Source: Alphaproteobacteria bacterium (GTDB taxonomy: Bacteria > Pseudomonadota > Alphaproteobacteria > Micavibrionales > Micavibrionaceae). Taken from it: DNA of 64,000 bases. Below the pieces are notes generated by a model. It ran no database searches, was not told the DNA's origin, and saw only the letters and a list, made by a program, of their open reading frames with translations. The position numbers and the translations under genes are program-made. The stretch spans positions 3,325 to 67,324 of the forward strand of contig JAERIN010000005.1 in NCBI GenBank assembly GCA_016757515.1. Direction: 5' to 3'. Shown piece by piece: positions 36,792 through 64,000 of the stretch (its first letter is position 1; every line of letters starts with the position of its first letter).

Positions 36792-36806
36792 GCCCCCCTG
36801 GGGGCG

Positions 36807-38328: not shown

Positions 38329-39243
38329 ATGCACAACGTTCTGTTCCTCTGCGTACTCTTGGTTGCCGCCCCGGCCCTGGCGATGCCGACGCCCCGCATG
38401 GGCGCACCGGTGGCCCTTACGGGCCCGAGCGTCACGGCGGGGGACGTATTCACCGGCCTGGGGGCTACAGACGCGGCATTCTACCTCGCGCCCGCGCCGG
38501 AGCCGGGGGACGCGCTCACCCTGCCCGCCTCAGATCTGCTGCGGATTGCGCGAGCATTGGGCCTGTCCTGGCGGCCAACCACAGGGGCAGAGCAGGTGGT
38601 CCTGACCAACCCTGCGACCGTCATAGGCGCGCAGGCCATAGAGGCCGCCCTGGACCCCGCGCTGCGCGCGCGCGGGGCACCGGCGGATTTCGTCCTGGAC
38701 TATGCCGCAGGGCCGCCGCGTCTGGTCCTTGCCGGCCACGGCCCACCGCCTGCGCTGCGGGTGGCGGCGCTGTCTTATGATCCTGGGCGCGGGCATTTCT
38801 CCGCACACATACAGGCCGGGGGGGAGGCCTGGAAAGTGCAGGGCCAGGTGGAGCCCGTGGTGGCGATCCCCGCCCTAATCCGGGGCATACAGGCCGGCAC
38901 GCGCATAGGCCCGGGGGACCTGACCACCTTGCGCTTGCCCTCTAGGTCCTTACAGCGAGACACACTTTTGGAGGCCGAAAGCGTTGCCGGCATGACCGCG
39001 CGGCGCGCCCTGCAGCCCGGTGCGCCCCTGCGCGCCAGCGATGTCGCCCCGCCGCGCCTGGTTAAGCGGGGGGAGAGCGTCACCATTGTTCTGCGCGACG
39101 GAACCTTGGAACTGACGGCCCTGGGCAGGGCCCTGGAGAACGGGGCAAAGGGAGACGTCGTGCGCGTTGTGAACAGCGCATCAGGCCGCTCCCTGGACGC
39201 CCGCGTCACGGGTGACCGCGCGGTGAGTGTGGGGGGGCTGTAG
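38329..39243 (+). CDS. flgA: Flagellar P-ring assembly chaperone FlgA
   Basis: Signal peptide. C-terminal SAF/FlgA pattern LVKRGESVTIVLRDGTLELTALGRALENGAKGDVVRVVNSASGRSLDARV. Position after flgG. Confidence 0.85.
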   Translation: MHNVLFLCVLLVAAPALAMPTPRMGAPVALTGPSVTAGDVFTGLGATDAAFYLAPAPEPGDALTLPASDLLRIARALGLSWRPTTGAEQVVLTNPATVIGAQAIEAALDPALRARGAPADFVLDYAAGPPRLVLAGHGPPPALRVAALSYDPGRGHFSAHIQAGGEAWKVQGQVEPVVAIPALIRGIQAGTRIGPGDLTTLRLPSRSLQRDTLLEAESVAGMTARRALQPGAPLRASDVAPPRLVKRGESVTIVLRDGTLELTALGRALENGAKGDVVRVVNSASGRSLDARVTGDRAVSVGGL

Positions 39244-39247: not shown

Positions 39248-40300
39248 ATGGAGAAGGTCACACTGCAGAGCTTGAGCCGGTTGTCCCAGGGCATGGTGTG
39301 GCAGTTCTGGGTCGTGGCCGGGGGCCTGGCGGCCGCGCAGTGCGCCCGTCTTGGGTGGCCCTTTGAGCTGGCCAGCCATTTCCTGGGCCACGCCCTCATC
39401 GCCCTGGCGGCCCTGGCGCCCGCCCTCCTCATCGCCGGGCGCTGGCGGTACGCCGTGGCCGCCCTGGGCCTGGCCATCCTTGTCCTGGTTCAGATGCGCA
39501 CGCCCCTTGAGGACCCCTGGCGCTTTGGCCCCCTGGCGGGGGCGCCCTTCGTGCGCGTGGTGCAGTACAACACCGCCACGCAGACCAAAAACGAGGCCCA
39601 GGTGGAGCCGTGGCTCCGAACCCACTGCACGGAGCACGACGTCGTGGTGATCCAGGAGGCCACCGCCCGCACCGTGGACATGGCCGAGTCCTTGCGCGCC
39701 GACTGCTACCCACACCAAGTGCAAGCGCCCCGGCCTCATGCCTTCGGGATGGTCGTGTTGTCCCGTCATCCGCTTACGGAGATACAGGAAATCCCAATCT
39801 CAGGCCCGCGCTTTGACACCTTCATGCTGCGCGTACAAGTGACTCTGCCTGGCGAGCCTCTAACCTTGTATTCAGGTTATAAAGCGTCTCAACCTGACCG
39901 TCAGGTGACTTTACCCAGCGAACCCCTGACCCTGTATGCCCTGCATACTGTTCCCCCAATGGGCCGCAGCCTTCAGGCCCAGCGCGATGCGGAGTTGGCT
40001 GCCGCGGCCCGCACAATTGCTGCGGACGCAGCACCCCGCACGGTTTTTGTGGGAGACTGGAACACAACGCCCTACAGCCCGGCCTTCTGGGACCTCCTGT
40101 CGGCCTCCGGCCTGCTCCACCAGGCCGGAGGGATTCTCCAAAACCCAACCTGGCCAGCGTGGCTACCGCACTTCATGCACCTGCCCATTGACCACGTGCT
40201 GCACAGCCCAGACCTCGTGATCCTGGAGCGCACGGTCGGGCCCGCCCTGGGCTCCGACCACCACGCCCTTATCGTCACCCTCGGCCTGAAGGAGACCTGA
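39248..40300 (+). CDS. Membrane-anchored endonuclease/exonuclease/phosphatase (EEP) family protein
   Basis: N-terminal TM helices. VVVIQEAT, MVVLSRHPL, YALHTVPP, FVGDWNTTPYSP, DHVLHS, GSDHHALIVTL. 4-nt gap after flgA and 3-nt gap before flgH. Confidence 0.8.
   Translation: MEKVTLQSLSRLSQGMVWQFWVVAGGLAAAQCARLGWPFELASHFLGHALIALAALAPALLIAGRWRYAVAALGLAILVLVQMRTPLEDPWRFGPLAGAPFVRVVQYNTATQTKNEAQVEPWLRTHCTEHDVVVIQEATARTVDMAESLRADCYPHQVQAPRPHAFGMVVLSRHPLTEIQEIPISGPRFDTFMLRVQVTLPGEPLTLYSGYKASQPDRQVTLPSEPLTLYALHTVPPMGRSLQAQRDAELAAAARTIAADAAPRTVFVGDWNTTPYSPAFWDLLSASGLLHQAGGILQNPTWPAWLPHFMHLPIDHVLHSPDLVILERTVGPALGSDHHALIVTLGLKET
39836..39937. repeat. 66-bp-period in-frame partial duplication inside the EEP gene
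   Basis: CAAGTGACTCTGCCTGGCGAGCCTCTAACCTTGTAT (39836-71) against CAGGTGACTTTACCCAGCGAACCCCTGACCCTGTAT (39902-37). They encode QVTLPGEPLTLY and QVTLPSEPLTLY. Confidence 0.8.
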
Positions 40301-40303: not shown

Positions 40304-41041
40304 ATGCGTGCGCTGCTTATCCTTCCCCTGGTCCTGGCCCTTGTCGCCTGCACCTCCACGGCGGAGAAGATCAAGAATATCGGCAAGCCCCCGCCCATAA
40401 CGCCCATAGAAAACCCGGTCCAGCGTCCGAACTACCGCCCTGTCACCATGCCCATGCCCACGCCGTCCTATGCGGCCCGGGAGAAAAACTCCCTGTGGGC
40501 CTCGGGGCGCTCTACCTTTTTCAAAGACCAAAGGGCGAGCAACGTGGGGGACATTCTGACCGTCCTGATAGACATCAAGGATGAAGCCACGCTGGACAAC
40601 AAAACCGAGCGCACCCGCACAAGCGACGACAACGCAGGCTTTGAGAGTTTTTTGGGCTTAGAGACCCAGGTGGGGAAGGTCCTGCCAGATGCGGTGGACC
40701 CGGCCAGCCTCATCGGCTTCGGCTCCACCAGCACCACAGCGGGGGACGGCTCCGTGGAGCGGGAGGAGGACATAAAGCTAAAAATGGCGGCGCTCATCAC
40801 ACAAATCTTGCCCAACGGGAACATGGTTATCCACGGACGGCAGGAGGTTCTTGTGAACTTTGAGAAGCGCGTCCTGGAGATCGACGGGGTCATCCGGCCC
40901 GAGGACATCTCCACCGGAAACACCATTTCTTACGAGCAAATCGCCGAGGCCCGCATTGTCTATGGCGGCCAGGGGCACATCACCGACATCCAGCAGCCTC
41001 GCTATGGCCAGCAGCTCTATGACATTGTTTTTCCGTTTTGA
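40304..41041 (+). CDS. flgH: Flagellar L-ring lipoprotein FlgH
   Basis: Lipobox LALVAC. SLW....STFFKDQRASNVGDILTVLI...ITQILPNGNMVIHGRQEV.VN.E...L...GVIRPEDI...NTISYEQIAEARI.YGG.G. Confidence 0.95.
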   Translation: MRALLILPLVLALVACTSTAEKIKNIGKPPPITPIENPVQRPNYRPVTMPMPTPSYAAREKNSLWASGRSTFFKDQRASNVGDILTVLIDIKDEATLDNKTERTRTSDDNAGFESFLGLETQVGKVLPDAVDPASLIGFGSTSTTAGDGSVEREEDIKLKMAALITQILPNGNMVIHGRQEVLVNFEKRVLEIDGVIRPEDISTGNTISYEQIAEARIVYGGQGHITDIQQPRYGQQLYDIVFPF

Positions 41042-45340: not shown

Positions 45341-46687
45341 CTACGCCGCGATACCATCCATGAAGCGCCGGTGGACATGCCCGGGCGGGAGCCAGAGGCG
45401 CTCCATGGCTGGCATCCCGTGGACATAGCCCTGGATATGCCGGACGCCGTCGCGGGCCAGGGTTGCGGCCTCCTCAGCGGTCTCTGCCCCCTCGCCCACG
45501 GTTTCCACGGCTATGCCGTCTGCCAGTGTTTGTAGGGCCCGGATGAACAGGTGCCCTCCCTCCTCGCGCATACGGCGGACAAAGGACTGGTCAATCTTTA
45601 CGATATCCACCTGAAGGTTTTGAATCTGCGTGAAGGCCGTGTAGCCGGCCCCAAAGTCGTCCAAGGCCACACGGCAGCCCAGGTCCTTCAGGGTCCGCAC
45701 AAGCCGCTGCGTCTGCGCTGGGTCGCGCATCACCGCGCTTTCGGTGATCTCAACCACCAGGCGGCGCGCTACGTCGGGCCGGTCTCTGAGGGCCGACACC
45801 ACGCCCCGGATCCACGTCATGTCCGCGAGGGAATCGTGCGATACGTTTGCAGACAAGACGAGGTCCGGGAAGGCTGCCAGCTCTCGTATCACCATGGCGA
45901 TTGCGGCTTGGTCCAGCATCCGCACAAGGCCCAATTCCTCTACAGCGGGCATGAACTCCGCCGCCCGGTGTACGCGCCCGTTTTCTCCCACAAGGCGGAT
46001 GAGACACTCATGGAAGGACACCCGGCCCGTGCGGGAGTCCACGACCTTCTGAAAGGCCAGGCCCAGCCGACGGGATTTGAGGGCCCTGAGGAAGGCATCC
46101 CCGGTCGCGATCATGTGTCCATAGGCCTCAGTTTGCGCACGGGTGGCGGTGTAAGGGGCGAAGCGGCCCCGGCCCGCGTCTTTGGCTGTGCGGAGGGCAG
46201 ACTCTGCGCGGGAGAGCAAAAGGGCCTCATCCACTCCCTGCTCATGGGGGGCGCCACCGATGGACACGCTCACTCGCACCAGGCCCTTTCCCGCAGACAT
46301 GGGGGCGTCCTGGAAGCTGTTTAGGATGTGGGCCGCTATGGCGGGCATCTCGCTGGGGGGAGCACCAGGCACCACCACCGCAAACACGTCTCCCCCCACA
46401 CGCTGGACGGCAGCTGTGGAGCCTAAGAGGTGGCGTAGGCGCCGACCCGTCCCGGCGATGAGGTCGTCCGTCACGGCTGTTCCCAGGGTCTCGTTAAAAA
46501 ACCCCAGACGATCTATGCCCACGGCCAGGAGGTAGCCCCCGTTTTGCTCCTCTAGGGCACCAAAGAGGAGCTCTGACCCAAGACCGGGCCGTGCGCGCGG
46601 GGCCCAGGGAGAGCGGGCGGAAAGCGTTGGAGAGAGGGCAGTTGCCTGGGTGTCCATGGCCCGGGTGTCTTTGCTGTTGTGGTCCAT
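45341..46687 (-). CDS. Degenerate-GGDEF plus EAL domain protein (putative c-di-GMP phosphodiesterase)
   Basis: The GGDEF site reads RVGGDVFAVV. EAL-domain motifs FHECLIRL, EITES, DDFGAGYT, KIDQSF, GEGAETAEE. Alternative start at MDTQ (46657). Confidence 0.8.
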   Translation of the reverse strand: MDHNSKDTRAMDTQATALSPTLSARSPWAPRARPGLGSELLFGALEEQNGGYLLAVGIDRLGFFNETLGTAVTDDLIAGTGRRLRHLLGSTAAVQRVGGDVFAVVVPGAPPSEMPAIAAHILNSFQDAPMSAGKGLVRVSVSIGGAPHEQGVDEALLLSRAESALRTAKDAGRGRFAPYTATRAQTEAYGHMIATGDAFLRALKSRRLGLAFQKVVDSRTGRVSFHECLIRLVGENGRVHRAAEFMPAVEELGLVRMLDQAAIAMVIRELAAFPDLVLSANVSHDSLADMTWIRGVVSALRDRPDVARRLVVEITESAVMRDPAQTQRLVRTLKDLGCRVALDDFGAGYTAFTQIQNLQVDIVKIDQSFVRRMREEGGHLFIRALQTLADGIAVETVGEGAETAEEAATLARDGVRHIQGYVHGMPAMERLWLPPGHVHRRFMDGIAA

Positions 46688-46946: not shown

Positions 46947-48125
46947 GTGGAGCACTCGACCTTCCAGAACATACCCAAGGATATGGCCCCGGTTCTGGCC
47001 CGCCTGAACGCGGCGTGCGCCTTGTATCGCGACTCCCGGGACCCGCTGGCCCGTGTGGATATCATGGTCCTTGTCAGTGATCTTATGACCTTGGAGCTGA
47101 CCGGGCAGGAGCGGGAGATGGTTGCCGACGTCCTCATCATCCTGACCAAGCAGGCAGCGGTAGACCTGCGCCGCGCAATCGCAGAGCGCCTCTCGGCCTT
47201 AGACGGGGTCCCCGTGCGCTTGGTCATGCAGATGGCCAACGATGAGATCGCCGTCGCCAGGCCCGTCTTGCGGGACAGTCCGGTCCTGGGGGATGTACAA
47301 CTCATAGACATAATATCTAACAAGGGTCCTGGGCACTGGGAAACCATCGCCTCTCGCCGGGGCCTCTCAGAGGTCATCATCAACCGCCTGGCGGACACAC
47401 GGGATTATGGAACTGCAACGGTCCTAGCCGAGAACATCACCATAACTCTGCCCGCGCATGCCATCAGCGTCTTGGCCGAAATGGCCAAGGGTTCAGAGAC
47501 TTTGGCCCAGCCCCTTTTGCGGCGGAGTGAAATCCCGGACACCGTGGCATCCCAGCTTTACCGTCACGTCGGCGCGACACTCAAGAAGTTCATCTTGCGA
47601 AACTACGAGGTGGACACGCAGGACCTTTTGGACACGCTAGATGACGTTGTTTTGGAGTTTGTGGACAGCGCGCAAGAGGCCGAGTCTCGGTCTGCGTCCG
47701 GCGAGGCCCAGACCACAGAACACAGAGTTTTGCCCACCCAGGCCATGATCCGCGCGGCGTCGGAGTTCAGGCAAAAAGGCCTTTTGACAGTCCAGCTGAT
47801 GCTCTCCACCCTTCGGCGCGGTCAGAATCCCTCCTTTGTGGCCCAGATGTCCACATACTGCGGTTTGGAGCCGCCGGTGGTGAGCGAAGTCCTGCACCAA
47901 AAGAAGGCGCGGGCCCTGGCCATCGTCTGCCGCGCAGCCGGAGTCGGGCGGACAGACTTTCTGTCTTTTTATCTTTTGACCAACACAGTCCGGAGCCTGG
48001 GGCAACTCGCAAACCTTCAGGACATGGCCACCGCCGTTGGAGTCTATGACCGCACCAGCTCGGAACTCGCCCGGCAGATCATGGCCCAGAGCCTGGACAG
48101 ACTCCTGGCCGAGGGGGTAGGATAG
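46947..48125 (+). CDS. DUF2336-like protein
   Basis: GTG start. LTGQEREMVADVLIILTKQAAVDLRRAIAERLSALDGVPVRLVMQMANDEIAVARPVLRDSPVLGDVQLIDII fits my recollection of the alphaproteobacterial DUF2336 repeat pattern. Confidence 0.5.
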   Translation: MEHSTFQNIPKDMAPVLARLNAACALYRDSRDPLARVDIMVLVSDLMTLELTGQEREMVADVLIILTKQAAVDLRRAIAERLSALDGVPVRLVMQMANDEIAVARPVLRDSPVLGDVQLIDIISNKGPGHWETIASRRGLSEVIINRLADTRDYGTATVLAENITITLPAHAISVLAEMAKGSETLAQPLLRRSEIPDTVASQLYRHVGATLKKFILRNYEVDTQDLLDTLDDVVLEFVDSAQEAESRSASGEAQTTEHRVLPTQAMIRAASEFRQKGLLTVQLMLSTLRRGQNPSFVAQMSTYCGLEPPVVSEVLHQKKARALAIVCRAAGVGRTDFLSFYLLTNTVRSLGQLANLQDMATAVGVYDRTSSELARQIMAQSLDRLLAEGVG

Positions 48126-48129: not shown

Positions 48130-48918
48130 ATGTCTGGGATCGTCACTATTGTTGTTGAGCCCGCTGGGCCTTGGCTTCTGGAGGAGGGGCTGCAACACAT
48201 TCTAGACCATTTCAAGGTTCTAGGCGCAGCGGCGCAGTTCTTGGAAGAGGGGACCAAGATTCAATGGGGCCTCGGCGCTGCACATATGAACAGCCCGTTG
48301 AGCATGGAGGCCCATGCCCTGAACGCACCACAGCTGGCCCCCCGTGCGGTCGGAGAGTATGCCCGCGCCGCCCATGCACCGCGCCCGCCCGCATGGATCA
48401 GATCCTGCCCCGCCTATCGGAACGTTCTGACAAGTAAAGGTATGCGGTCCACGCAGATTTCCTGCCCAGGCGCAGAGCCCCTGGTTTTCTCCCAGGACTT
48501 CGCGGCCCGTGCCCTGCAAAACCTGGACGCGCTATGCCCCAAGAATCTCGCACACATCGCATATGGAGTGCGAGAGGGGTACATTTCCTCTGTGGGAACC
48601 TACTATAAAAATCCGTCCTTTAATCTCAAAGATATTTTGGACAAAAGGGACATCACCTGCATTGTAAAAGATCAGAGTTTGGCTGATAGGCTAGGAAAGA
48701 ACCATTCCTGGAGAGAGGCATGGGAAGACAGGCGCGTTGTTGTGCATGGACTAATATTCTATAAGCCGGATGGAAAAATTAAGGAAATAGAGGTGCAAAA
48801 CCTGGAGGAGGTCCATGCCCGCGAAGTTCCTATAGAAAAAATATTTGTAAAGGACTTCACTCGTAGTATGTCTGTCCCTGAATATATAGACAACGTGAGG
48901 GACGGACACATTGACTGA
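48130..48918 (+). CDS. Hypothetical protein; the 3' half is AT-rich
   Basis: 4-nt gap after the DUF2336 stop. An internal ATG at 48442 (MRSTQISC) is an alternative start that coincides with the drop in GC. No family recognised. Confidence 0.45.
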   Translation: MSGIVTIVVEPAGPWLLEEGLQHILDHFKVLGAAAQFLEEGTKIQWGLGAAHMNSPLSMEAHALNAPQLAPRAVGEYARAAHAPRPPAWIRSCPAYRNVLTSKGMRSTQISCPGAEPLVFSQDFAARALQNLDALCPKNLAHIAYGVREGYISSVGTYYKNPSFNLKDILDKRDITCIVKDQSLADRLGKNHSWREAWEDRRVVVHGLIFYKPDGKIKEIEVQNLEEVHAREVPIEKIFVKDFTRSMSVPEYIDNVRDGHID

Positions 48919-49087
48919 TATACACAAAGTATACTGGGATTCCTGCGCCTGGATTGCCCTTATTAATAAAGAGCCTGAGCATTTGCAGGCTCTTGAGCGC
49001 ATTTATGAATCCGCCAGGCGCGGAGACCCTGTAGAAATATGGACGTCGTCCCTCAGAAGATGGCCATTTTCACGGAGATCTTTTTAA
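48911..49087 (+). pseudogene. Truncated PIN-domain (VapC-like) gene remnant, 58 codons
   Basis: Hand-translated from a TTG start: TDIHKVYWDSCAWIALINKEPEHLQALERIYESARRGDPVEIWTSSL, then unrelated residues and TAA at 49085-87. The N-terminal xYxDS..WIA pattern and the later TSxL are PIN-like, and the C-terminal half of the domain is missing. It overlaps the upstream stop by 8 nt. Too short to appear in the ORF track. Confidence 0.5.
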
Positions 49088-49108
49088 GAATACAGCGTGA
49101 GGAAAAAA

Positions 49109-49729
49109 ATGCCCGCAGCAACCGCCCGCAAGTTTTTGTTTGATGTCCACTCCTTTGAGGCGGATGAAGCGCCCTGCGATGAGCTTCTCACGCAGGACGT
49201 TGCGCATTCGCCGCCGCCCACGTTCAGTGAGGAAGAGCTGGCCGCCGCCCGTGCTGAGGGGGTTGCGCAGGGCCGGGCGGAGGCTCTGGAAGAGCTTCGC
49301 ACCACGGAGGCCCAGGCCGCGTCCCAGGCCTTGGAGGCCGCGCGGACGGCGCTCTCGGTCTTGGTGGAGAGTGAGGCAGGGCGCGCCGCGCTGTACGAGT
49401 CTGCTGCGGTGCGGGTGGCCATTGCCGCCTTTTCCAGGACTTTCCCTGCCCTTGCGGCGGCCGGGGGCCTTGCTGAGATACAAGCAGCGATGGAGGCCGC
49501 CCTGACCGATCTCGGCCCGCACGTGGGGGAGGTCACGCTCCACGTTCACCCGGACCACCTGCCCGCCCTGGCCCCTTTGGGCGTTCACCTGGTGCCCGAT
49601 GAGGCCCTGGGCCCTGCGGACTTCCGGGCCGCCTGGGCCGGAGGCGGCGCGGAGCGGGATGCAGGGGCCCTGGCCGGGGCCATCGCAGCGGCGCTTGCGC
49701 CCGGCACCGCAGAGGACAGCGCCGGGTAG
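49109..49729 (+). CDS. FliH-like flagellar export apparatus protein (tentative)
   Basis: GAGGA SD 5 nt upstream. ARKFLFDVHSFE...PPTFSEEELAAARAEGVAQGRAEALEE resembles the alphaproteobacterial FliH N-terminus as I remember it. Confidence 0.4.
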   Translation: MPAATARKFLFDVHSFEADEAPCDELLTQDVAHSPPPTFSEEELAAARAEGVAQGRAEALEELRTTEAQAASQALEAARTALSVLVESEAGRAALYESAAVRVAIAAFSRTFPALAAAGGLAEIQAAMEAALTDLGPHVGEVTLHVHPDHLPALAPLGVHLVPDEALGPADFRAAWAGGGAERDAGALAGAIAAALAPGTAEDSAG

Positions 49730-49802: not shown

Positions 49803-52800
49803 ATGCTCGGCTTCACCCGCCTGCGCCTTCGGGGCTTTAAGTCCTTCGCGGACCAGACGGACCTGGACATCGCGCCGGGCCTGACGGGCATCGTGGGGCC
49901 GAACGGCTGCGGAAAGTCCAACATCCTGGAGGCCCTGCGCTGGGTCATGGGGGAGTCCTCCGCCCGCAAAATGCGCGGCACGGAGATGGAGGACGTGATC
50001 TTCGCCGGCACGGCCTCCCGCGCGGCGCGGGAGATGGCCCATGTCACGCTGACCCTGGACAACGCCGGCGCAGACGCCCCGGCCCCGTGGACCGCGTCTG
50101 AAACCATAGAGGTCTCCCGCGCCATCGCCCGGGGGCAGGGCTCTGCCTTCCGTATAAACGGCCGCCCGGTGCGCGCCCGGGACGTCCACGTTTTGTTCGC
50201 AGATTCCACAAGCGGCGCAGCCTCCCCGGCCCTGGTTTCGCAGGGACACATCGCCCGTATGATGACCGTCAAGCCGCACGAGCGGCGGCAGATCCTGGAA
50301 GAGGCTGCGGGGGTGGCGGGCCTGCATGCCCGTCGCGGGGAGGCTGCGCAGCGCCTGACCGCAGCGGAGGGGAACCTGGCGCAGGTTGCGCAGCGCCTGG
50401 CCGATATGCGTGGGCGCGCCGAGGCCTTGGCAAAGGCCGCGAAACAGGCCGCGCGCTACCGCGCCCTCTCGGAGGAGATACGGTCCCTGGAGGTGTCCAT
50501 CGCCCTGGCCACTTGGGAAGACCTGGCCCTTCGCCTTGAGGATGCGGAGCAGGAGCAAAGAGCGGCGGAGAAGGCTCTGGCGGCCCGCATGGCCGCAGCG
50601 GCCGAGGCCGGGCGCGTGGCGGAGGCTTCTGCAGGACGGCAAAGGTCTCTGCGGACGGTGGAGATGGAGGCTGGGAGCCGGGCGGAGCGCGCACGGTTGG
50701 ACCTGGACGTGCTGGAGGCCGCAGGGACCCGGCACGCGCGGGACGTGGCGGCGGGGCGGGGCCTTCTGGACCAGACGCGGGCGGACGCGGCGCACGAGCA
50801 GGCGGCACTGGCCGAGGCCGAGGCGCGGCTCCGGGCTCTGTCGGAGGAGGCGGAGGCCGCACCGGAGGTGAGCGAAGAGGACGTGTCTGCCGCGTCCGCG
50901 GAGGCCGGGGCTCTGGAGTCCGTGGCGGCGGATGCCGGCAGGGTGCATGAGGCTGCGCTGTCCGCGGCAAGCGAGGCACGGGCGGAGCGCGGGTCTGCGG
51001 AGCGCCGTCTGAGAGACGCCGCGCGTCACAAGGAGACGCTGGACGCCCGCGTGGCCCAGGCGCGCGCGGCCTGGGAGGCTCTCCAGGGCGTGTTTCCCCG
51101 CAATGGGTCTCCGGGTGCTGCGGCATTGCCGCCCTCCGAGCACGGAGAAGGCACACAGGCCCTGGAGGCTGACATTGCTGCGGCGGAGAGGACTCTGGCG
51201 GAGGCCGTGGCCCAGGCGCCTGCCCTTGCGGCACAGACTGCGGCCCTCACGCGTGAGGTGCAGGACGCGCAGGACCGGGCAGTCGCCGCGGAGCGGGCGG
51301 CGGTGGCCCTGGTGTGCGAGGTGGAGGCCCTGGCACCCCTCGTTTCCGGGGCAAGGGAGGAGAGCCCAGACGCCGTGGCCCACACGCTGGCTATAGAGCC
51401 GGGCGCAGAGGCCGCCCTCGCCGCCGCGCTGGGGGAGGGACTTGTGGCCTCCCTCAACACGCAAGACTTGGCCTTCTGGGCACCCGCAGACGCTGTACCG
51501 GACATCCCTCCGCCGGCTCTTCCAGACGGGGCCCGTCCCCTGGTCGCGTATCTGCAGGAACCACCCCCCGCTCTGGCCCAGGCCCTTGCCGCTGCGGGCG
51601 TGGTGGCGGACATGAGTACCGCCCAGGCCCTGGCCCCGCGCTTGCGCCCCGGCCAGTGCCTGGTGACAGCGGAGGGGGGCGTGGTCCGCTGGGACGGCTA
51701 CACAGCCCACCCCGGCGCGCGCAGCACGGACGAGGCCGCCAAGCTGGCACAGCGGGGTCGCCTCGCCGCCCTCCAGGCGCAGCGCCCGGGGCGGGAGAGG
51801 GACCACGCGGAGGCGGAGCAGGCTCTGGCCGCAGCAAAGGCCGGGATCGCACAGGCGCGGAAGGCCGAGCAGGCCTTGGAGGCCGTCCGCCGGGGGGCGG
51901 AACAGGAAGTTGCGCAAAAGCGGGTGGCTCTGGCCGCAGCGCGGGAGGCTGCAGCAAGACAGGAGGCGGACCGCACGCGCGCCAAGGCCACGTTGGAGGA
52001 GGCGCGGGCGCAGATGGCTGTACTGGAGGACTCTGTGGCCAGGGACGAGGAGGCCCTGGCCGCCGCGCGCGCTGCGGAGGCAGAGGCGGAGCAGACTCTG
52101 GCCGCAGCGCACGATGCAGTGCAGCAGGCGCGCGATAGGGCACGTGCCGCGCAGGATGCGGCCAGCCGCCTGGCTCAGGCCGCGGCCGGTCGGCGGGCGC
52201 GCGCCCAGGCCGCTGCGGACGAGCGCGTGCGCCTGACCAACCAGGCCATCCGTGCTCGTGGGCGTCTGGAGGCCCTGGCCGCGCGGGAGGCCGAGCAGGC
52301 CACAGCGCTGGAGGTTCTTGTGGCGGACCCGCCGGACGCGCCGGAGGCCACGGCCGCGCTGGAAAGCGCCCTAGAGGCAGCGAAGGTCGCCCACGCCCAC
52401 GCGCGGGCGCAGCTGGAGGCCGAGGAGGCCGCAGGGGCCCAGGCCGCCGCGCGCCTTAAGGCGGAGGAGGAGGCCATAGGGACCTTACGCGAGCGCCGCG
52501 CCGTCGCCGCAGCGAACCATGCCTCCCTGGCGCAGCAAAGGGCAGCCGCAGCAAGGGCCATTGAGGGCAAGTTCGGGCGAGGGCCCGAAGCCCTGGGCCC
52601 AGTGCAGCAGGCAGAGAGCGTGGACACGCTGACCGCGCGCCTCGCGCGGCGTTCCCGAGAGCGGGAGGCCCTAGGCCCCGTGAATCTGCAGGCTGAGGCG
52701 GAGGGCGCGGCCCTGGCGGCGGAGGTTGAGGCCCTGGCCGCAGAGGAGGGGGACCTGACCCAGGCGGTGGCGGAGCTGCAGTCTGCCATACGCAAGATCA

Positions 52801-53294
52801 ACAAAGAGGCCAGGGGCCGCCTTCTGGCCGCATTCCGCGCCGTGGACGCGCACTTCCAGCGCCTCTTCACCCGCCTGTTCGGCGGCGGCCAGGCGCGCCT
52901 GGCCCTCATCGGCGACGACCCTCTGGAGGCCGGGCTGGACGTCCTTGCGCAGCCGCCGGGCAAGACCTTACAGTCCCTCACCCTCCTGTCCGGGGGGGAG
53001 CAGACCCTGGCCTCCATCGCCCTCATCATGGCCATGTTCCTGGCCCAGCCCGCGCCCCTGTGCGTCCTGGACGAGATAGACGCCGCCCTGGACGACGCGA
53101 ACGTGGAGCGCATGTGCGGCCTTTTGGAGGAGATCGCCCGGCGCACCCAGACGCGCTTCCTGGTCATAACACACCACCGCCTGACCATGGCGCGGATGGA
53201 TAGGCTCTACGGCGTCACCATGGCCGAACGGGGCGTTTCGGCCCTCGTCTCCGTGGACCTGCAGGAGTCCTTCGCGTTTATGGACGCGGCCTAG
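49803..53294 (+). CDS. smc: Chromosome partition protein Smc
   Basis: Walker A GPNGCGKSNILEALRWVMGE, long coiled coils, hinge, LSGGEQTLASIAL, Walker B CVLDEIDAALDDANV. Confidence 0.96.
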   Translation: MLGFTRLRLRGFKSFADQTDLDIAPGLTGIVGPNGCGKSNILEALRWVMGESSARKMRGTEMEDVIFAGTASRAAREMAHVTLTLDNAGADAPAPWTASETIEVSRAIARGQGSAFRINGRPVRARDVHVLFADSTSGAASPALVSQGHIARMMTVKPHERRQILEEAAGVAGLHARRGEAAQRLTAAEGNLAQVAQRLADMRGRAEALAKAAKQAARYRALSEEIRSLEVSIALATWEDLALRLEDAEQEQRAAEKALAARMAAAAEAGRVAEASAGRQRSLRTVEMEAGSRAERARLDLDVLEAAGTRHARDVAAGRGLLDQTRADAAHEQAALAEAEARLRALSEEAEAAPEVSEEDVSAASAEAGALESVAADAGRVHEAALSAASEARAERGSAERRLRDAARHKETLDARVAQARAAWEALQGVFPRNGSPGAAALPPSEHGEGTQALEADIAAAERTLAEAVAQAPALAAQTAALTREVQDAQDRAVAAERAAVALVCEVEALAPLVSGAREESPDAVAHTLAIEPGAEAALAAALGEGLVASLNTQDLAFWAPADAVPDIPPPALPDGARPLVAYLQEPPPALAQALAAAGVVADMSTAQALAPRLRPGQCLVTAEGGVVRWDGYTAHPGARSTDEAAKLAQRGRLAALQAQRPGRERDHAEAEQALAAAKAGIAQARKAEQALEAVRRGAEQEVAQKRVALAAAREAAARQEADRTRAKATLEEARAQMAVLEDSVARDEEALAAARAAEAEAEQTLAAAHDAVQQARDRARAAQDAASRLAQAAAGRRARAQAAADERVRLTNQAIRARGRLEALAAREAEQATALEVLVADPPDAPEATAALESALEAAKVAHAHARAQLEAEEAAGAQAAARLKAEEEAIGTLRERRAVAAANHASLAQQRAAAARAIEGKFGRGPEALGPVQQAESVDTLTARLARRSREREALGPVNLQAEAEGAALAAEVEALAAEEGDLTQAVAELQSAIRKINKEARGRLLAAFRAVDAHFQRLFTRLFGGGQARLALIGDDPLEAGLDVLAQPPGKTLQSLTLLSGGEQTLASIALIMAMFLAQPAPLCVLDEIDAALDDANVERMCGLLEEIARRTQTRFLVITHHRLTMARMDRLYGVTMAERGVSALVSVDLQESFAFMDAA

Positions 53295-53308
53295 GCCCGC
53301 CCGATTCT

Positions 53309-53497
53309 ATGCCGCACCGCAGCACAATTTTCGCCCCAGAGCGCCGAAAAATCGTGTATTATCAGGGGAAAGGGTCGGTGCACACCACAAAAACATGCCA
53401 CCGCCGTGCTGCCGCCCAGCCACCGCCCAGATACCCCCGTGCTACCGCAGCGCCACCGCCCAGATACCGCAGCGCCGCCGCCCAGTCACCATTTTGG
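53309..53497 (+). repeat. Intergenic repeat element, copy B (inverted relative to copy A), with an 11-bp-period array at 53397-53495
   Basis: 11-mer registers at 53397, 408, 419, 430, 441, 452, 463, 474 and 485. The G-C-Y-R-C-C-G-C-C cores lie at 53397, 408, 419, 441, 452 and 474, all separated by multiples of 11. Confidence 0.85.
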
Positions 53498-53672
53498 GGC
53501 CGGTTCCGCGCCAAAGAAGCGCGGCCCGCGCAGGCCCCCCCGCAAGAACGGGAGACATACGCCTTTTGCGCCCCATCACACTTTTTTGCGCTGCAGCGCG
53601 GATTTTTTTGTTGACAAAAGGGTACGGATATGGCAATTTTCTCCTTATTGAAAGAGAGGAGGAGACCATCCT

Positions 53673-54044
53673 ATGCGATCAAGTTTGACACGGGAACAGT
53701 TAGCAGCCGTGCGAGGGCGGCAAGGCCTCCGCCCGGAACGCCGAGCCCCGACAGACGCTCAAAAGGCCATCAGGAAGATGGGCCTTTTTGTGCTCTCTGC
53801 GCGCCAGAATGAGGTTGTTTTAGAGGAAGACACCTTAAGGGCGGGAGAGCGAACCGTCACACGCCGGGAGGCCAGGGCCTTCTTGGAGTGGGCTGATACC
53901 GAGAGGCAAAATCCGCCTGTTAGGGGCATGACTGAAGATGAGACAGACGCGGTCTTGGACAAGATGTCTGCCGCACTACATGGCGTAAGACCTCTGCAAG
54001 AGGTGATAGCGGAAATAGAAGCCGGAGCGCTCCACGCCGCATAA
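53673..54044 (+). CDS. Hypothetical protein (123 aa)
   Basis: GAGAGGAGGAG SD 8 nt before the ATG. A TTGACA box at 53611-16 lies upstream. No family recognised. Confidence 0.5.
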   Translation: MRSSLTREQLAAVRGRQGLRPERRAPTDAQKAIRKMGLFVLSARQNEVVLEEDTLRAGERTVTRREARAFLEWADTERQNPPVRGMTEDETDAVLDKMSAALHGVRPLQEVIAEIEAGALHAA

Positions 54045-54049
54045 ACCCC

Positions 54050-54078
54050 TTGCATCCTGTGCGGGGGGGCGCTAGGGT
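54050..54078 (+). promoter_or_regulatory. Promoter candidate for rplK-rplA
   Basis: TTGCAT, 17-nt spacer, TAGGGT. Confidence 0.4.
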
Positions 54079-54113
54079 CCTCCGCTTAACGCGAGGAAGG
54101 GGTTCACAAAGCC

Positions 54114-54560
54114 ATGGCACCGCCGAAGAAGAAAAAAGAGATTATCGGGACTATATCCCTGACCATCACCGGCGGGGGCGCGACCCAGGCACCGCCTGTG
54201 GGGCCCGCCCTGGGGCAAAAGGGCGTGAACATCATGGAGTTCTGCAAGGCCTTCAACGCGAAGACCGAGGACCAAAAGGGCATCCCCATCCCCGTGCTCA
54301 TCACAGTGTACAAGGACAAGTCCTTTGACTTTGTGACCAAAACGCCCCCGGCGTCGTACTTCCTGAAGCAGGCCGCGAAGCTGCAAAAAGGCGGGTCCAC
54401 GCCGGGCCGGGCCACGGCGGGGCAGGTCCGGCGCAGCGCAGTGCGCAAAATCGCGCAGGCCAAGGCCGTGGACCTCTCCGCGTTTGACGAGGACGCAGCG
54501 ATGAAGATTATTGAGGGCTCTGCGCGCAGCATGGGCCTTGTGGTTGTGGAGGACGAGTAA
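54114..54560 (+). CDS. rplK: 50S ribosomal protein L11
   Basis: [26 protein letters not shown]...[17 protein letters not shown]. Confidence 0.96.
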
Positions 54561-54561
54561 G

Positions 54562-55266
54562 ATGGCAAAAACCGCACGCAAAATGGCCGCGATCCGCGAG
54601 GCCCTGGAAGAAGGCAAGGTGTATACCCTGCCCGAGGCTCTGGAGGTGCTGAAAAACGCGGGCAAGGAGCGCAAGCTCAACGAGAGCGTGGAGATTGCCA
54701 TGAACCTGGGCGTGGACACGCGGCACGCGGACCAGAACGTCCGGGGGATGGTGACCCTCCCGGAGGGGACGGGGAAGGACGTGCGCGTGGCCGTGTTCGC
54801 GCGGGACGCGAAGGCCGACGAGGCGCGAGAGGCCGGGGCGGACATCGTGGGCGCGGAGGACCTTCTGGAGGCCATCCAGGGTGGTACGATTGCCTTTGAC
54901 CGCTGCATCGCCACGCCGGACATGATGGCCCTGGTGGGGCGGGTGGCGCGCATCCTGGGGCCACGGGGCTTGATGCCCAACCCGAAGCTGGGCACCGTGA
55001 CGCCGAATGTGGCCGAGGCCGTGAAGGCCGCCAAGGGCGGCGCGGTGGAGTTCCGCGCGGAGAAGGGCGGCATTATCCACGCCGGGGTGGGAAAGTCCGA
55101 CTTTTCTACCGAGCGTCTGGCCGCGAACGTTCGGGCCTTCGTGGACGCCATCCTGCGCGCGAAGCCCGCCGGGGCCAAGGGCGTGTACGTGAAAAAGGTG
55201 ACGCTGTCCTCCACCATGGGCCCCGGCCTGCGCGTAGACCTGGCCTCCATTACCCAAGGGGCGTGA
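54562..55266 (+). CDS. rplA: 50S ribosomal protein L1
   Basis: [33 protein letters not shown]...[15 protein letters not shown]. Start trimmed to MAKTARK. Confidence 0.96.
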
Positions 55267-55757
55267 ACATGGGCGAGGGCTCCGGCATACCTGAGAGCCG
55301 CTTTGCCATGTGGCGGGCCGTGGTGGCCCTGGCGCACCTGGACGGCCGCATAGACCCCGCAGAGCGCAGCCTTGTGGAGGGCTACCTCGCGCACGTTCCG
55401 TTTTCCCCGGACCAGGCTGAGGCCTTGGGGGCGGACCTTGCGCACCCGCGCGACCCAGCAGAGGCCTTTGACGCCATAACAGACCCCGCAGACCGGGGGG
55501 AGTTTTTCGCCTTCGCGCAGGCGATGGTGGCTTGCGACCACGACCTGGACCCGCAGGAGATGGGCGCTGTGGAGGCCCTGCAGGCCGGACAGCTTGCCCA
55601 GGTGCAAGGCCAAGATTTGCCCGGACTTTTGCACGCCATGCGCGAGAAGGCTGCGTCCGCCCGCGCCGCGGAGGATCAAACCCTGCGCGAGGAGGCCCGC
55701 AAGGCCCTGGGCCTGGGCGCTTTCCTGCGCGGCATGCTGCGCCGGCAGGGACGCTGA
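55263..55757 (+). CDS. TerB-like (tellurite-resistance TerB / DjlA N-terminal type) domain protein
   Basis: [26 protein letters not shown]...[26 protein letters not shown] shows the two-repeat TerB-like pattern. GTG 55263 overlaps the rplA stop, and ATG 55269 is the alternative start. It is not L10 or L7/L12. Confidence 0.5.
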
Positions 55758-55845
55758 TACCCGCATCAGGCGCGCAGTTTTGGGCGCCGGCCAGGGCAGC
55801 ACTGCCCCACAGACAGGCGCAAGCCCGTGGGGACAAAAAAACCTG

Positions 55846-55874
55846 TTGACAGGCCGCGCGCCGTGTTCCATATA
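55846..55874 (+). promoter_or_regulatory. sigma70-type promoter candidate for rpoB
   Basis: TTGACA (55846-51), 17-nt spacer, CATATA (55869-74). Confidence 0.45.
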
Positions 55875-56009
55875 GCGGGCGCACATGGGGGCCTGCGCTT
55901 AACACTTTATGATACTTCGGGCACGCTGGACGCGACGCGCGGCCCGGCGTTTTGCGCTTTCCCCCGCTCGCGCACGAAAACGATTTTTTAAGGAGCAGGA
56001 GCCCGCGCC

Positions 56010-59000
56010 ATGACGCCCCCCACATCTGCCGCCAGAACCCTTTCCGCCCCCACCAGGAGGCCCCATGCCCTCTCTCGCCCCCGACGGGTTTTTGGCCCTG
56101 GGGACGTTCTGGATGCGATTATGCCGAACCTGAATGAGATGCAGTGCCGCTCTTATGCGGAGTTCCTGCAGGCGGACGTGCCCGCGGCAGAGCGCAAGAA
56201 TCAGGGCCTGCAGGAGGTCTTGACCTCCATTTTCCCCATCAAGGACTTCGGAGACCGGTCAGAGATTGACTTTGTGCTCTATAACTTAGACCCCCCAAAG
56301 TACGACACGGAGGAGTGCCTGCGGCGTTCCATGACCTACGCCGCCCCGCTGCGCGTTACCTTGCGCCTGTCTGTGTTTGACGTGGACGAGGCCACGGGTC
56401 TGCGCTCCATCCGGGACATAAAAGAGCAGGACGTCTACCTGGTGGACATGCCCCTGATGACGGACAACGGGACCTTCATCGTGAACGGTACGGAGCGCGT
56501 GGTGGTGTCCCAGATGCACCGGAGCCCCGGGGTGTTCTTTGACCACGACGGGGGCAAAACGCACATATCGGGCAAGTACCTGTTCTCCGCGCGGGTCATC
56601 CCCTACCGCGGCTCGTGGCTGGACTTTGAGTTTGATGCCAAGGACCTTATGTACGTCCGCATAGACCGGCGGCGCAAGCTGCCGGCCACAACCCTTTTGC
56701 GCGCACTGGACAGTGCGGACACGGTGGCGTACCGCGCACAGTGCGAGGAGCAAGACATCACGCCTGACCCCATGCGCATCCAGGGCATGGGCAACGAAGA
56801 GATTTTGGCCACGTTCTATGACCGTATTGCCTATGCGCGAGACAAGGACGGCTGGCGCACAGCGTTTGACCCGGAGCGCATGAAGGGCGTGAAGTTGACC
56901 CATAGCCTGGTGGACGCTGCCACGGGCAAGGTCGTCGCGGAGGCGGGGGAGAAGCTGACCCCCCGCCAGGCGCGGAAGCTGGCTGAGGGGGGGCTGAAGG
57001 AGATCTTGGTCGGCCAAGAGGAGATTGTGGGCCGCTATCTGGCCACGGACGTCTTGTGCATGGAGAAGGGGGAGGTGTTCTTTGAAGCTGGACACGAAGT
57101 GGAGGAAGAGGACTTCGCAACCTTTGAGGCGAACGGCATAGACACGCTCCACATCCTGGCCATAGACGGGGTGAACATCGGCCCCTATATGCGCAATACC
57201 CTGATGGTGGACAAGTCCCTCACGCGGGAGACCGCCCTGATGGACATCTACCGCGTCATGCGCCCCGGCGAGCCGCCCACGGTGGAGAGCGCGGAGAATC
57301 TGTTTAACGCCCTGTTCTTTGACCCGGAGCGCTATGATCTCTCCCCCGTGGGGCGCGTGAAGATGAATGCGCGCCTGGACCTAGGCGCACCGGACGACTT
57401 CCGCGTCCTGTCCCAGGACGACATCCTGTCCATACTGCGCTACCTCCACGGCCTGAAGGACGGGCAGGGAGAGGTGGACGACATAGACAACCTGGGCAAC
57501 CGCCGCGTGCGCAGCGTTGGGGAGCTGATGGAAAACCAGGTCCGTATTGGCCTCTTGCGCATGGAGCGCGCCATCCGCGAGAGGATGAGTTCGGTGGAGA
57601 TAGACACCTACATGCCGCACGACCTGATCAACTCCAAGCCCGCGCAAGCCGCGGTGCGGGAGTTCTTTGGCTCCTCGCAGCTGTCCCAGTTCATGGACCA
57701 GACCAACCCCCTGTCCGAAATCACGCACAAGCGGCGCCTCTCGGCTCTGGGCCCCGGTGGGCTAACGCGCGAGCGCGCAGGGTTTGAGGTGCGGGACGTC
57801 CACCCCACGCACTATGGCCGCATCTGCCCGATTGAGACGCCCGAGGGGCCGAACATCGGCCTTATCAACTCCCTGGCCACCTTCGCGCGCATCAACCCCT
57901 ATGGCTTTATTGAAAGCCCCTACCGCCGCGTGGTGGACGGGGCCGTGACGGACGAGGTGGTCTACATGTCCGCCATGGAGGAGGCCAAGTACACCATCGC
58001 CCAGGCCAACGCAGAGCGGGACGAAAAGGGCAGGTTTGTGAACGACCTCATCTCATGCCGCAAGTCCGGTGAGAGCCTGATGTCCACGCCGGAGCAGATT
58101 GAGTTCATGGACGTCTCGCCCAAGCAGATTGTCTCCGTCGCCGCCGCCCTTATCCCCTTCCTAGAGAACGACGACGCCAACCGCGCCCTCATGGGCTCCA
58201 ACATGCAGCGCCAGGCCGTGCCCCTCTTGCGCACAGAGGCCCCCCTTGTTGGCACAGGGCTGGAGTCCACCGTCGCGCGGGACTCCGGGGCTGCCGTCAC
58301 CGCCCGCCGCGCCGGGACCGTGACACAGGTGGACGCCACCCGCATTGTCATCCAGGCCTCGCAGCGCACACGGCCCGACGAGCCCGTGGTGGACATCTAT
58401 AAATTGTCCAAGTTCCAGCGCTCTAACCAAGACACCTGCATGAACCAGCGCCCCATCGTGAAGGTCGGGGACGTTGTGGCACAAGGGGACATCATCGCCG
58501 ACGGGCCCTCCACACAGCACGGGGAGCTTGCCCTGGGCCGCAACATCCTCGTGGCCTTCATGCCCTGGCACGGGTACAACTTTGAGGACTCTATCCTCAT
58601 CTCTGAGCGTGTGGTGCGCGACGACGTCTTCACCTCCATCCACATTGAGGAGTTTGAGGCCATCGCCCGCGACACAAAGCTGGGCACGGAGGAGATCACC
58701 CGCGACATACCCAACGTGGGGGAAGAGGCCCTGCGCCAGCTGGATGAGGCCGGCATTGTTCACATCGGGGCCGAGGTCGCGCCGGGGGACATCCTCGTTG
58801 GCAAGGTGACACCCAAGGGCGAAACCCCCATGACGCCCGAAGAGAAGCTTCTGCGCGCCATATTTGGGGAGAAGGCCTCTGACGTGCGCGACAGCTCTCT
58901 GCGCCTGCCCCCCGGCGCGAGCGGGACCATCGTGGACGTGAGCGTCTTCACCCGCTCCGGCGTGGACATGGACGCCCGGGCCATTGCCAACCTGCAGGCG

Positions 59001-60206
59001 GAGATTGAGCGCTTGCAAAAGGACGAAGCTGTGGAGCGCCGGACCCTGGAAGCTGGGTTCTATGCGCACCTAGAGCGCGCCCTGGTGGGCCAGCAGGTCG
59101 CCTCCGCCCCCAAGGACGCGAAGCTGAAAAAGGGCCAATCCATAACCGCTGAGGCCCTGGAGGCCGTGAAGCGCCCCCTGTGGCGCAAAATCGCCGTGGC
59201 GGACGACGCCGTGGCGGCGGAGGTGGAGGCCCTGGCCGCCGCGTTTGATAAGGCCATCGCGGCCCTGAAGACCCGTTTTGAGGACAAAGTGGACAAGCTC
59301 CAGCGCGGGGACGACCTCCCCCCAGGCGTGATGAAGATCGTCAAGGTCCACGTGGCCATAAAGCGCAAGGTGCAGCCGGGAGACAAGATGGCCGGGCGGC
59401 ACGGCAACAAGGGCGTGGTGTCCAAAATTATGCCCGTGGAGGACATGCCCTTCACCGAGGACGGAACCCCCGTGGATATTGTCCTGAACCCCCTGGGCGT
59501 GCCCAGCCGCATGAACGTTGGACAGATTTTGGAAACGCACCTGGGCTGGGCCGCCGCTGGGATGGGCCGGCGCATCGGTGCGGCCCTGGACGCCGTGGAC
59601 AAAAAGGCTCTGGCCGATGCCCTTAAGGACGCCTATGGGGAGCGGGAGTACGCCGCCAAGATCGCCGGGCGGGAGGAGGAGGTGGCCGCGCGCCTGCGCG
59701 ACGGTGTGCCCATGGCCACGCCCGTCTTTGACGGCGCGCATGAGGAGGACGTCTCCGCCCTCCTGGCCGCTGCGGGCCTGCCCACCAGCGGGCAGGTGGC
59801 CCTGACCGACGGCCGTACGGGCCAGCGCTTCGCCCGCCCCGTCACCGTGGGGTACATGTACATGCTCAAGCTCCACCACCTCGTGGACGACAAAATCCAC
59901 GCGCGGTCCATCGGGCCGTACTCCCTCGTCACGCAGCAGCCCCTAGGCGGGAAGGCCCAGTTCGGCGGACAGCGGTTCGGGGAGATGGAGGTCTGGGCGC
60001 TGCAGGCCTACGGCGCCGCGTACACGCTTCAGGAGATGCTTACGGTCAAGTCTGACGACGTCGCGGGTCGTGCCAAGGTGTACGAGTCCATCGTGCGCGG
60101 GGACGACAACTTTGAGGTCGGCATCCCGGAAAGCTTTAATGTCTTGACCAAAGAGCTGAAAGCCCTGGGCCTGAACGTGGACATGAAACAGAGCGAGGGG
60201 GGGTAG
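56010..60206 (+). CDS. rpoB: DNA-directed RNA polymerase subunit beta
   Basis: [16 protein letters not shown]...[22 protein letters not shown]...NMQRQAVPL...[12 protein letters not shown]...[14 protein letters not shown]. The start codon is the first ATG of the ORF. The N-terminal 20 residues are uncertain. Confidence 0.97.
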
Positions 60207-60208
60207 AG

Positions 60209-60724
60209 GTGAAAAGACATACTATTTTGTTTTGTGGGGCTCTCGCACTTCTTGCAATGGCGCTGCTCCCGACCCTGGCTTTTTCAGCCTCAGAGACTGA
60301 GTGCGATCTTCCTAAGGAACTTGCAGAGGCCGGGATAAAATGTGCAGACCGACCCCTCATATACCGACCTGTACAACCCCATAAATACGAATGCGACGCC
60401 GTACCCTTCGCTGCCCTGAAGACGGGAGAGTACGTTGAAGTTCCGCACGTTACTGTGAATTTAGCATCTTCTGACGGAGAGCCCCATTATGGACGCTTCA
60501 AAATCGTTTTGTGGGTTGATTCCGGAAAGCACAAAGATGTTGAGCTCGCCTGGCCCCGCCTTCACGATAGATTTGGAAATATCCTTAGAACTTTAAGCTT
60601 TCAGTATGTATTGGATGCAGAAAACACTGATAAGATAAGGGATAGTATAAAGAAAGAAGCCGATAAGATTGTTGGGCCTAATGTTGTCAAAGAAGTTCTT
60701 ATTATAGAGATAATTGTGAATTAG
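60209..60724 (+). CDS. fliL: FliL-family (flagellar basal-body-associated) protein paralog, AT-rich
   Basis: GTG start 2 nt after the rpoB stop. N-terminal hydrophobic helix. VPHVTVNLASSDGEPHYGRFKIVLWVD...WPRLHDRFGNILRTL...VVKEVLIIEIIVN parallels remembered Caulobacter FliL (IVVNMQTADGRSTFLKLKLTFEL...LPRLQDMFQTFLREL...VNAVLIEEMLIN). Confidence 0.7.
   Translation: MKRHTILFCGALALLAMALLPTLAFSASETECDLPKELAEAGIKCADRPLIYRPVQPHKYECDAVPFAALKTGEYVEVPHVTVNLASSDGEPHYGRFKIVLWVDSGKHKDVELAWPRLHDRFGNILRTLSFQYVLDAENTDKIRDSIKKEADKIVGPNVVKEVLIIEIIVN

Positions 60725-64000
<3,276 letters not shown>

Follow-up and report, generated by a model that had tools for sequence, protein, structure and literature searches.

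A divergent FliL-family gene of foreign composition lies between rpoB and rpoC in a Micavibrionaceae genome

The DNA analyzed here is one 64,000-nucleotide stretch (hereafter the window) of contig JAERIN010000005.1, from an alphaproteobacterium of the family Micavibrionaceae. Near the end of the window, one 171-codon gene was found between rpoB and rpoC, the genes for the β and β′ subunits of RNA polymerase. Few gene pairs in bacteria are as strongly conserved as the adjacent rpoB and rpoC. The inserted gene encodes a new member of a known family, FliL, and the oddity in gene order is real and unusual: the searchable literature yielded no report of an unrelated gene between rpoB and rpoC, and the location appears unprecedented both there and in our sample of 77 proteobacterial loci. 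The best reading is that the gene is a horizontally acquired, divergent FliL. We consider it probable (about 0.6) that an intact foreign gene, from a donor of low guanine plus cytosine (GC) content that is probably alphaproteobacterial, rides on rpoBC and encodes a FliL paralog that modulates the stator of the flagellar motor.

All three genes of the junction are on the plus strand. The rpoB gene (56010–60206) encodes 1398 residues; it was recognized from the open reading frame (ORF) listing and from Pfam RNA_pol_Rpb2 domains 1–7 on the identical JGI gene call. Its TAG stop codon is at 60204–60206. The inserted ORF (60209–60724) starts with GTG at 60209, 2 nt past the rpoB stop, and ends with TAG at 60722–60724. 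The ATG of rpoC is at 60743, 18 nt beyond the end of the inserted ORF; rpoC continues past the window edge at 64000 and encodes 1407 residues on the identical JGI contig. The two stop codons, the GTG, the length of 171 codons and the rpoC start had all been located in a preliminary description of this DNA, and the coordinates given there are exact. Its reading of the gene as FliL-like, foreign-looking and inserted is likewise supported by the results below. One Shine–Dalgarno-like sequence, GAGGGGGGG, lies within the final rpoB codons (60195–60203), 5–13 nt upstream of the GTG, and probably serves the inserted gene. The rpoC gene has its own Shine–Dalgarno sequence, AAGAGGG (60728–60734), 8 nt ahead of the ATG. 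In one relative (L004), the native leader of rpoC is similar to the ∼18 nt (AAGAGGGTCATAGCCATG) directly ahead of rpoC here, indicating that the insert is essentially the ORF alone.

The inserted ORF is no chance reading frame: in 20000 mononucleotide shuffles of the interior, the frame never stayed open. The gene calls of JGI, Logan and NCBI all include it. One NCBI copy, MBL3676330.1, is labeled 'flagellar basal body-associated FliL family protein'; in JGI and in the Third Party Annotation record the protein is annotated as hypothetical. Three cluster members of the protein are known, and they differ in the called start only. Some gene callers chose an internal ATG; however, the GTG is preferred, because only the GTG brings along both the complete hydrophobic segment and the ribosome-binding site.

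Assignment to the FliL family is based on several profile comparisons. In a Pfam scan of the inserted protein at E ≤ 10, FliL (PF03748) was the sole family matched and there was no Band_7 match; the FliL score is 42.7 bits (E = 8.8e-11), above the gathering score of 24.6, and residues 75–170 of 171 align to positions 1–102 of the 103-position model. A FliL profile built from 30 FliLs, with the inserted protein left out, gives the protein 106 bits, which is in the lower part of the leave-one-out range (52–187) of canonical FliLs. Conversely, one profile built from the inserted protein and its 30 nearest remote relatives matches the FliL structures 9hmf (5.6e-24), 7sgn and 6ahq. Of six near-invariant FliL positions, five are retained (P116, D120, L126, R127 and L164), and the sixth carries a conservative L-to-I change. 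The similarity to FliL thus runs through to the C-terminus, as the preliminary description had proposed.

The inserted protein can be divided into three parts. Residues 1–26 (60209–60286) are composed of MKRH followed by one 21-residue hydrophobic segment, a putative membrane anchor or signal peptide. This is the single N-terminal hydrophobic helix noted before; the mean Kyte–Doolittle hydropathy of residues 7–25 is 2.26, and the AlphaFold2 (AF2) model is helical at residues 3–24. The small residues near the segment (AFS-AS) would also permit cleavage by signal peptidase; the length of the hydrophobic core would favour an anchor over a cleaved signal peptide. Residues 27–70 (60287–60418) form one lineage-specific linker, which is predicted to be disordered, with a predicted local distance difference test (pLDDT) score of 56–68; it contains Cys32, Cys45, Cys62 and two ECD motifs. 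The homology search gave no genuine relatives of the linker. Its matches to two metagenomic repeat proteins, P0002 (1032 residues, 10 repeats; linker residues 28–82) and P0006 (254 residues, 6 repeats; residues 37–54), are weak, amplified by the repeats and probably spurious, and they were set aside. Residues 71–171 (60419–60721) form the FliL periplasmic domain, which has an SPFH-like fold and was modeled with pLDDT values of 93–98; the GC content of 60461–60721 is 39.5%.

Foldseek placed the periplasmic domains of Helicobacter pylori, Campylobacter jejuni and Vibrio FliL at the top, with target template modeling (TM) scores of 0.78–0.91 and root-mean-square deviations (rmsd) of 1.5–2.3 Å for the best chain of each entry. 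The match of the AF2 domain to 7sgn_A has an E-value of 1.8e-7, target TM of 0.90 and rmsd of 1.5 Å over 101 residues; TM values for 9hmf_O and 6ahq are 0.91 and 0.81, respectively. SPFH proteins follow at ranks 12–42 with E ≥ 7e-4, which is 3–4 orders weaker than FliL, and TM values of 0.25–0.70. The fold comparison, whose model made use of a FliL alignment, corroborates the FliL assignment, short of independent proof.

The composition of the inserted gene is very different from that of its surroundings. Its GC content is 45.3%, compared to 66.6% for the window, and it falls from 51.6% in the 5′ half to 39.5% in the 3′ half, with about 38% in the final 120 nt before rpoC. The anomaly, previously estimated by eye as 40–47% GC, is somewhat stronger than that estimate had suggested; only 0.25% of 516-nt sliding windows in the 64 kb fall below the inserted ORF. 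We used 43 curated genes of the window as the reference. GC at third codon positions (GC3) is 0.415 in the inserted ORF and 0.826 ± 0.047 in the reference genes (z = -8.8), the Karlin codon-bias distance is 0.81 versus 0.23 ± 0.055 (z = +10.5), and an index of the codon adaptation type is 0.32 versus 0.67 (z = -5.8). The amino-acid make-up is typical of low-GC organisms: F, Y, M, I, N and K account for 24.6% of the inserted protein and 16.3% of the proteins of the reference genes, while G, A, R and P account for 24.6% and 37.4%, respectively. The gene had been called foreign-looking, and by these calculations it is an extreme outlier in codon usage and GC content, while the native flagellar genes of the same window are host-like.

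GC contents at the first, second and third codon positions of the inserted ORF are 58%, 36% and 42%. The loci of its nearest homologues, P0003 and P0004, have 43% and 39% GC, and the three values look like those of a gene at equilibrium in a genome of such composition. Therefore, the simplest origin is a relatively recent transfer from one low-GC alphaproteobacterium. No convincing target-site duplications or inverted repeats were found around the insert, and searches with PHROG, PADLOC and viral contigs returned no relatives of the gene. One candidate trace of a mobile element, a 6-nt AGAGG(G)T present at both junctions (60205–60210 and 60729–60735), was not retained; it coincides in part with the ribosome-binding sites and may have arisen by chance.

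To place the insertion among relatives, we compared 80 other proteobacterial loci around rpoC; the end of rpoB was locatable in 77. Between rpoB and rpoC, all 77 have a gap of less than 300 nt, and tblastn with the inserted ORF gave no match at any of them. These loci include the two closest genomes, whose rpoB–rpoC spacers are 35 nt (L003) and 100 nt (L004). In L003 (JAIXWE010000090.1), the closest genome by RpoC, this protein is 81% identical over the first 400 residues. One exhaustive HMMER scan of 1.84 billion cluster representatives recovered only the protein itself at high identity; the next genuine matches are at most 38% identical, and there are no homologues between 38% and 99% identity. 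The insertion is thus lineage-restricted, neither widespread nor old. As a separate observation, the GC content of the L003 locus is 48%, compared to 64–67% here, indicating a very large GC shift within the lineage.

The inserted ORF is identical in all 13 independent assemblies that were fetched, namely those of 3 JGI samples, 9 SRA runs and NCBI GCA_003499545.1; two of the JGI contigs are ∼1.65 Mb in size, and some of the others are short-read assemblies. The preliminary description had allowed for an assembly error, which this agreement speaks against. The gene order smc, 123-residue orphan, rplK, rplA, DUF533, rpoB, FliL-like gene, rpoC, rpoZ (minus strand) and UDG is common to them. The contig index has the protein under three start calls, with 123 blocks, 33 blocks and 16 further contigs. 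We compared 50209–64000 with the corresponding parts of L001, L002 and L083–L093 (∼110 kb in total) and found two single-nucleotide polymorphisms, both in the smc gene of L085 (52351 C>T and 52387 T>C), and none in the inserted ORF. The organism is essentially clonal across the JGI, SRA and NCBI assemblies; repeated sampling of one system would explain at least some of the identical copies.

GCA_003499545.1 is UBA10425, which represents a novel genus of the Micavibrionaceae; the family affiliation of the host has been reported (PMC9296519). The host is an uncultured marine bacterium and probably predatory. Members of Micavibrio are obligate epibiotic predators with one single polar flagellum (PMC3189940). 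The host of the inserted gene possesses a flagellar motor: the window contains flhB for the flagellar export gate (28579–29643, minus strand; Pfam Bac_export_2, E = 2.8e-118), which stands apart from the other flagellar genes, and on the plus strand flgF (listed ORF 36543–37526), flgG (37539–38324), flgA (38329–39243) and flgH (40304–41041), all recognized by Pfam. One gene of the Exo_endo_phos (endonuclease/exonuclease/phosphatase) family (39248–40300, plus strand; Pfam) splits flgA from flgH. Because the listed flgF ORF overlaps one tRNA, its real start is probably near 36807. All five flagellar genes are host-like in composition.

Signals for separate expression of the inserted gene were sought. 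No sigma-70-like promoter or intrinsic terminator was found in 59500–61300, no sigma-28 or sigma-54 site was found near the insert, and the entire window yielded no CtrA box. RNA structure at the junctions does not go beyond shuffled controls, and the RNA family search returned one tRNA only. Given these results and the spacers of 2 and 18 nt, the inserted gene is likely co-transcribed with rpoB and rpoC. In the mechanism that we propose, the foreign gene would have been trimmed to fill exactly the rpoB–rpoC spacer of the UBA10425 genome; it would be transcribed on the rpoB–rpoC mRNA and translated by coupling to rpoB, with expression of the housekeeping rather than the flagellar-regulon type. 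The protein would have four residues in the cytoplasm, one membrane anchor, the Cys-bearing linker and the FliL domain in the periplasm. Most likely, as a FliL paralog, it would oligomerise around the MotA/MotB stator units of the flagellar motor of this organism and modulate their activity.

Comparison with known systems gives this proposal some context. With canonical alphaproteobacterial FliLs (P0003, P0004 and those of Caulobacter and Sinorhizobium) the inserted protein shares the periplasmic domain, from the first β-strand (VPxxxVNL) to the C-terminal VVKEVLIxEIIV, as well as the single N-terminal hydrophobic segment and a similar overall length. Different from them, it is at most 38% identical and has four cytoplasmic residues in place of a charged tail and one Cys-bearing linker; its gene is located inside rpoBC instead of beside fliM, with a GC content ∼21 points under that of the host. 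FliL has been defined by a cytoplasmic N-terminus of less than 15 residues, one transmembrane helix and the rest of the chain in the periplasm (PMC9541039), and the 4 residues and the 21-residue hydrophobic stretch of the inserted protein fit that definition, although the AFS-AS sequence also permits cleavage.

Sinorhizobium meliloti has a FliL paralog, MotF, which works alongside FliL in the same motor and releases the MotB plug; the N-terminal segment of MotF was found uncleaved by experiment, despite a SignalP cleavage prediction (PMC9541039). The inserted protein resembles MotF in being an alphaproteobacterial FliL-family protein with a signal-peptide-like N-terminus, a small-residue site and a periplasmic FliL-like domain; the likeness noted here is one of architecture. 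Different from the inserted gene, MotF is native to its genome, lies within the flagellar regulon and has an experimentally shown function. Predatory Bdellovibrio and like organisms (BALOs) carry three fliL genes each, two of which stand alone, and loss of the Bdellovibrio fliL gene bd1076 leads to host-independent growth, linking FliL to lifestyle control (PMC11323537). These paralogs share with the inserted gene a location away from other flagellar genes and a host of predatory lifestyle, which is probable for the host here. However, they belong to a different phylum and have their own promoters (a FliA site for bd1076), and none has been reported inside an RNA polymerase operon. SPFH, stomatin, HflK/C and QmcA scaffolds are similar in their α/β fold and ring-forming, single-pass membrane architecture; however, the inserted protein has neither a Band_7 Pfam match nor the long coiled-coil C-terminal extension of SPFH proteins, and the structural match to them is much weaker.

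Several observations weigh against reading the inserted protein as a stator-modulating FliL paralog. The best NCBIfam match is the FliL equivalog model NF009420 (PRK12785), with a score of 31.1 bits that does not reach the cut-off of 197; NF006283 and NF005435, with 16.1 and 15.5 bits, do not reach their cut-offs of 187 and 131 either. Scores so far under the equivalog cut-offs argue for a divergent member of the family rather than an orthologue of a characterised subfamily, and judged from its sequence the inserted protein is no equivalog of any curated FliL subfamily. The conserved GSxGxxRL of its nearest relatives is replaced by DAENTDKIR. Because a FliL alignment went into the AF2 model, the fold match depends in part on the sequence match. 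No flagellar gene adjoins the inserted gene, whose neighbours are rpoB and rpoC. Micavibrio aeruginosavorus expresses its flagellar genes in attack phase and shuts them off in attachment phase, with the reverse pattern for RNA polymerase genes (PMC3189940). If transcribed with rpoBC, the inserted gene would by this analogy be out of step with the flagellar regulon and peak while flagellar genes are off, a timing that is odd for a motor part. In addition, since the population is clonal, purifying selection on the inserted ORF is not measurable.

For flagellar biology, the inserted gene adds a putative, divergent FliL paralog from a likely predator, and its expression would run contrary to that of the flagellar regulon; if functional, it would offer a handle on how FliL-type proteins tie the state of the motor to lifestyle switches. 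The locus itself indicates that the rpoB–rpoC junction can accept one foreign gene and leave the operon unbroken. It may represent a natural example of a horizontally acquired gene that gained strong constitutive expression by capture of a housekeeping operon, in a reduced genome that shows much other rearrangement in its ribosomal-protein/RNA polymerase region. If it is a passenger, the gene would mark a recent gene transfer and call for caution in typing based on rpoB and rpoC.

A different explanation, which we regard as possible and hold tentatively, is xenologous replacement: the foreign copy would be the sole FliL of this organism, the native fliL having been lost as the flgFGAH/fliLM cluster broke up. 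The nearest homologues, P0003 and P0004, are encoded by ordinary fliL genes directly upstream of fliM, and in L094 the pair is divergent from flgF-flgG-flgA-flgH. In the window, gyrB and tRNA-Leu(CAA) (36670–36756) are located upstream of flgF, the place of fliL-fliM in related alphaproteobacteria, which indicates that the native cluster has been broken up. In line with a replacement, the FliL profile search returned the inserted protein alone from this organism. That search is insensitive, however, with 58 scored matches among 8000 candidates dominated by low-complexity words, and the FliM profile search, which gave none from this organism's contig, covers the best 120 of 8000 matches. As to a second fliL, 64 kb plus 7 kb of the 1.65-Mb genome were inspected directly, and multiple fliL copies are common in predators (PMC11323537).

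The inserted gene could also be a neutral passenger without function in the host, tolerated since read-through from rpoB to rpoC survives. We rate this as doubtful, though it keeps appreciable weight. Such a gene would be hard to lose, for an imprecise deletion would damage rpoB or rpoC; moreover, its composition is completely unameliorated, its context is not flagellar, it has no orthologues in any relative examined, its protein stays well under the FliL equivalog cut-offs, and the clonal population shows no sign of selection. On the other hand, the ORF is intact, the FliL core residues are conserved and the domain is confidently foldable, and from a reduced genome of 1.65 Mb one would expect DNA without use to be lost. 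The insert is cut back to the ORF, and the ribosome-binding site on either side of it looks functional, suggesting optimisation after insertion; a useless exported protein made in step with RNA polymerase would, in addition, be costly.

One non-flagellar role was also considered: during growth on prey, the SPFH-like domain would scaffold or regulate some other inner-membrane machine, such as an ion-driven motor of the ExbBD/TolQR type or a protease. Stomatin, QmcA and HflK/C have a related fold, the expression context is that of housekeeping genes, and none of the aligned FliLs has the unusual Cys linker. We nevertheless judge such a role unlikely: FliL structures match at E-values near 1e-7 and TM of 0.90, generic SPFH proteins at 1e-3 and 0.25–0.70, there is no Pfam Band_7 match, and the host does have a flagellar motor. 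A further variant within the flagellar context appears about equally improbable to us. Here, the foreign FliL would be made in counter-phase to the flagellar genes, during attachment and growth, and would brake existing stators, help to disassemble them or serve as a relay for sensing surface or load, coupling the motor to the attack-to-growth transition; in Bdellovibrio, losing one fliL likewise changes the lifestyle of the predator.

The insert might also matter as DNA or RNA, for example as an AT-rich internal promoter or processing site that uncouples rpoC from rpoB, in which case the ORF would be incidental. In GC-rich genomes, AT-rich islands often give rise to promoters, and the last 120 nt before rpoC have about 38% GC. 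However, none of the sigma-70-like, sigma-54, sigma-28 or CtrA motifs was found, the RNA has no structure beyond shuffled controls, and a 171-codon frame with one full FliL domain is unnecessary for such a role, which we therefore consider very unlikely. Chimeric joining of one low-GC fragment into a high-GC contig during assembly or binning, which the abrupt GC drop limited to ∼520 nt could suggest, can practically be dismissed, as the junctions are 100% identical in contigs exceeding 1 Mb as well as in short-read assemblies. The sources are at least 3 JGI samples, at least 9 SRA runs and GCA_003499545.1, and the frames and ribosome-binding sites are intact on both sides.

The surroundings of rpoBC also depart from the usual arrangement. 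Upstream of rpoB are rplK (54114–54560), rplA (54562–55266) and one DUF533/TerB-like gene (55263–55757), which is of host-like GC content and overlaps the rplA stop by 4 nt. The DUF533/TerB-like gene stands where rplJ and rplL, normally between rplA and rpoB, would lie; tblastn with the L004 copies found neither in the 64-kb window. The closest relative, L003, also has no rplJ-rplL upstream of rpoB, while L004 shows the standard order. Upstream of rplK are smc (49803–53294) and one 123-residue orphan ORF (53673–54044), which has no Pfam or PHROG match, instead of secE-nusG. Downstream, beyond the window, rpoZ for the omega subunit lies ∼30 nt past the rpoC stop on the opposite strand (L001 14787–15173); three genes for RNA polymerase subunits thus lie together, which is unusual. 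In this reduced genome, the whole region of ribosomal-protein and RNA polymerase genes has undergone reshuffling.

The window has just one other strongly low-GC patch, at 48596–49111 (43% GC). It covers the 3′ end of one 262-residue ORF (48130–48918), one 58-residue ORF (48911–49087) and the intergenic region before 49097. We had considered it a PIN/VapC remnant and dropped this idea, as there is no Pfam or PHROG match; the patch may be another foreign fragment. Between ilvA and this patch are the genes for one GGDEF-EAL protein (45341–46687, minus strand) and one DUF2336 protein (46947–48125). In predators, motility and lifestyle switches are connected with cyclic-di-GMP signalling.

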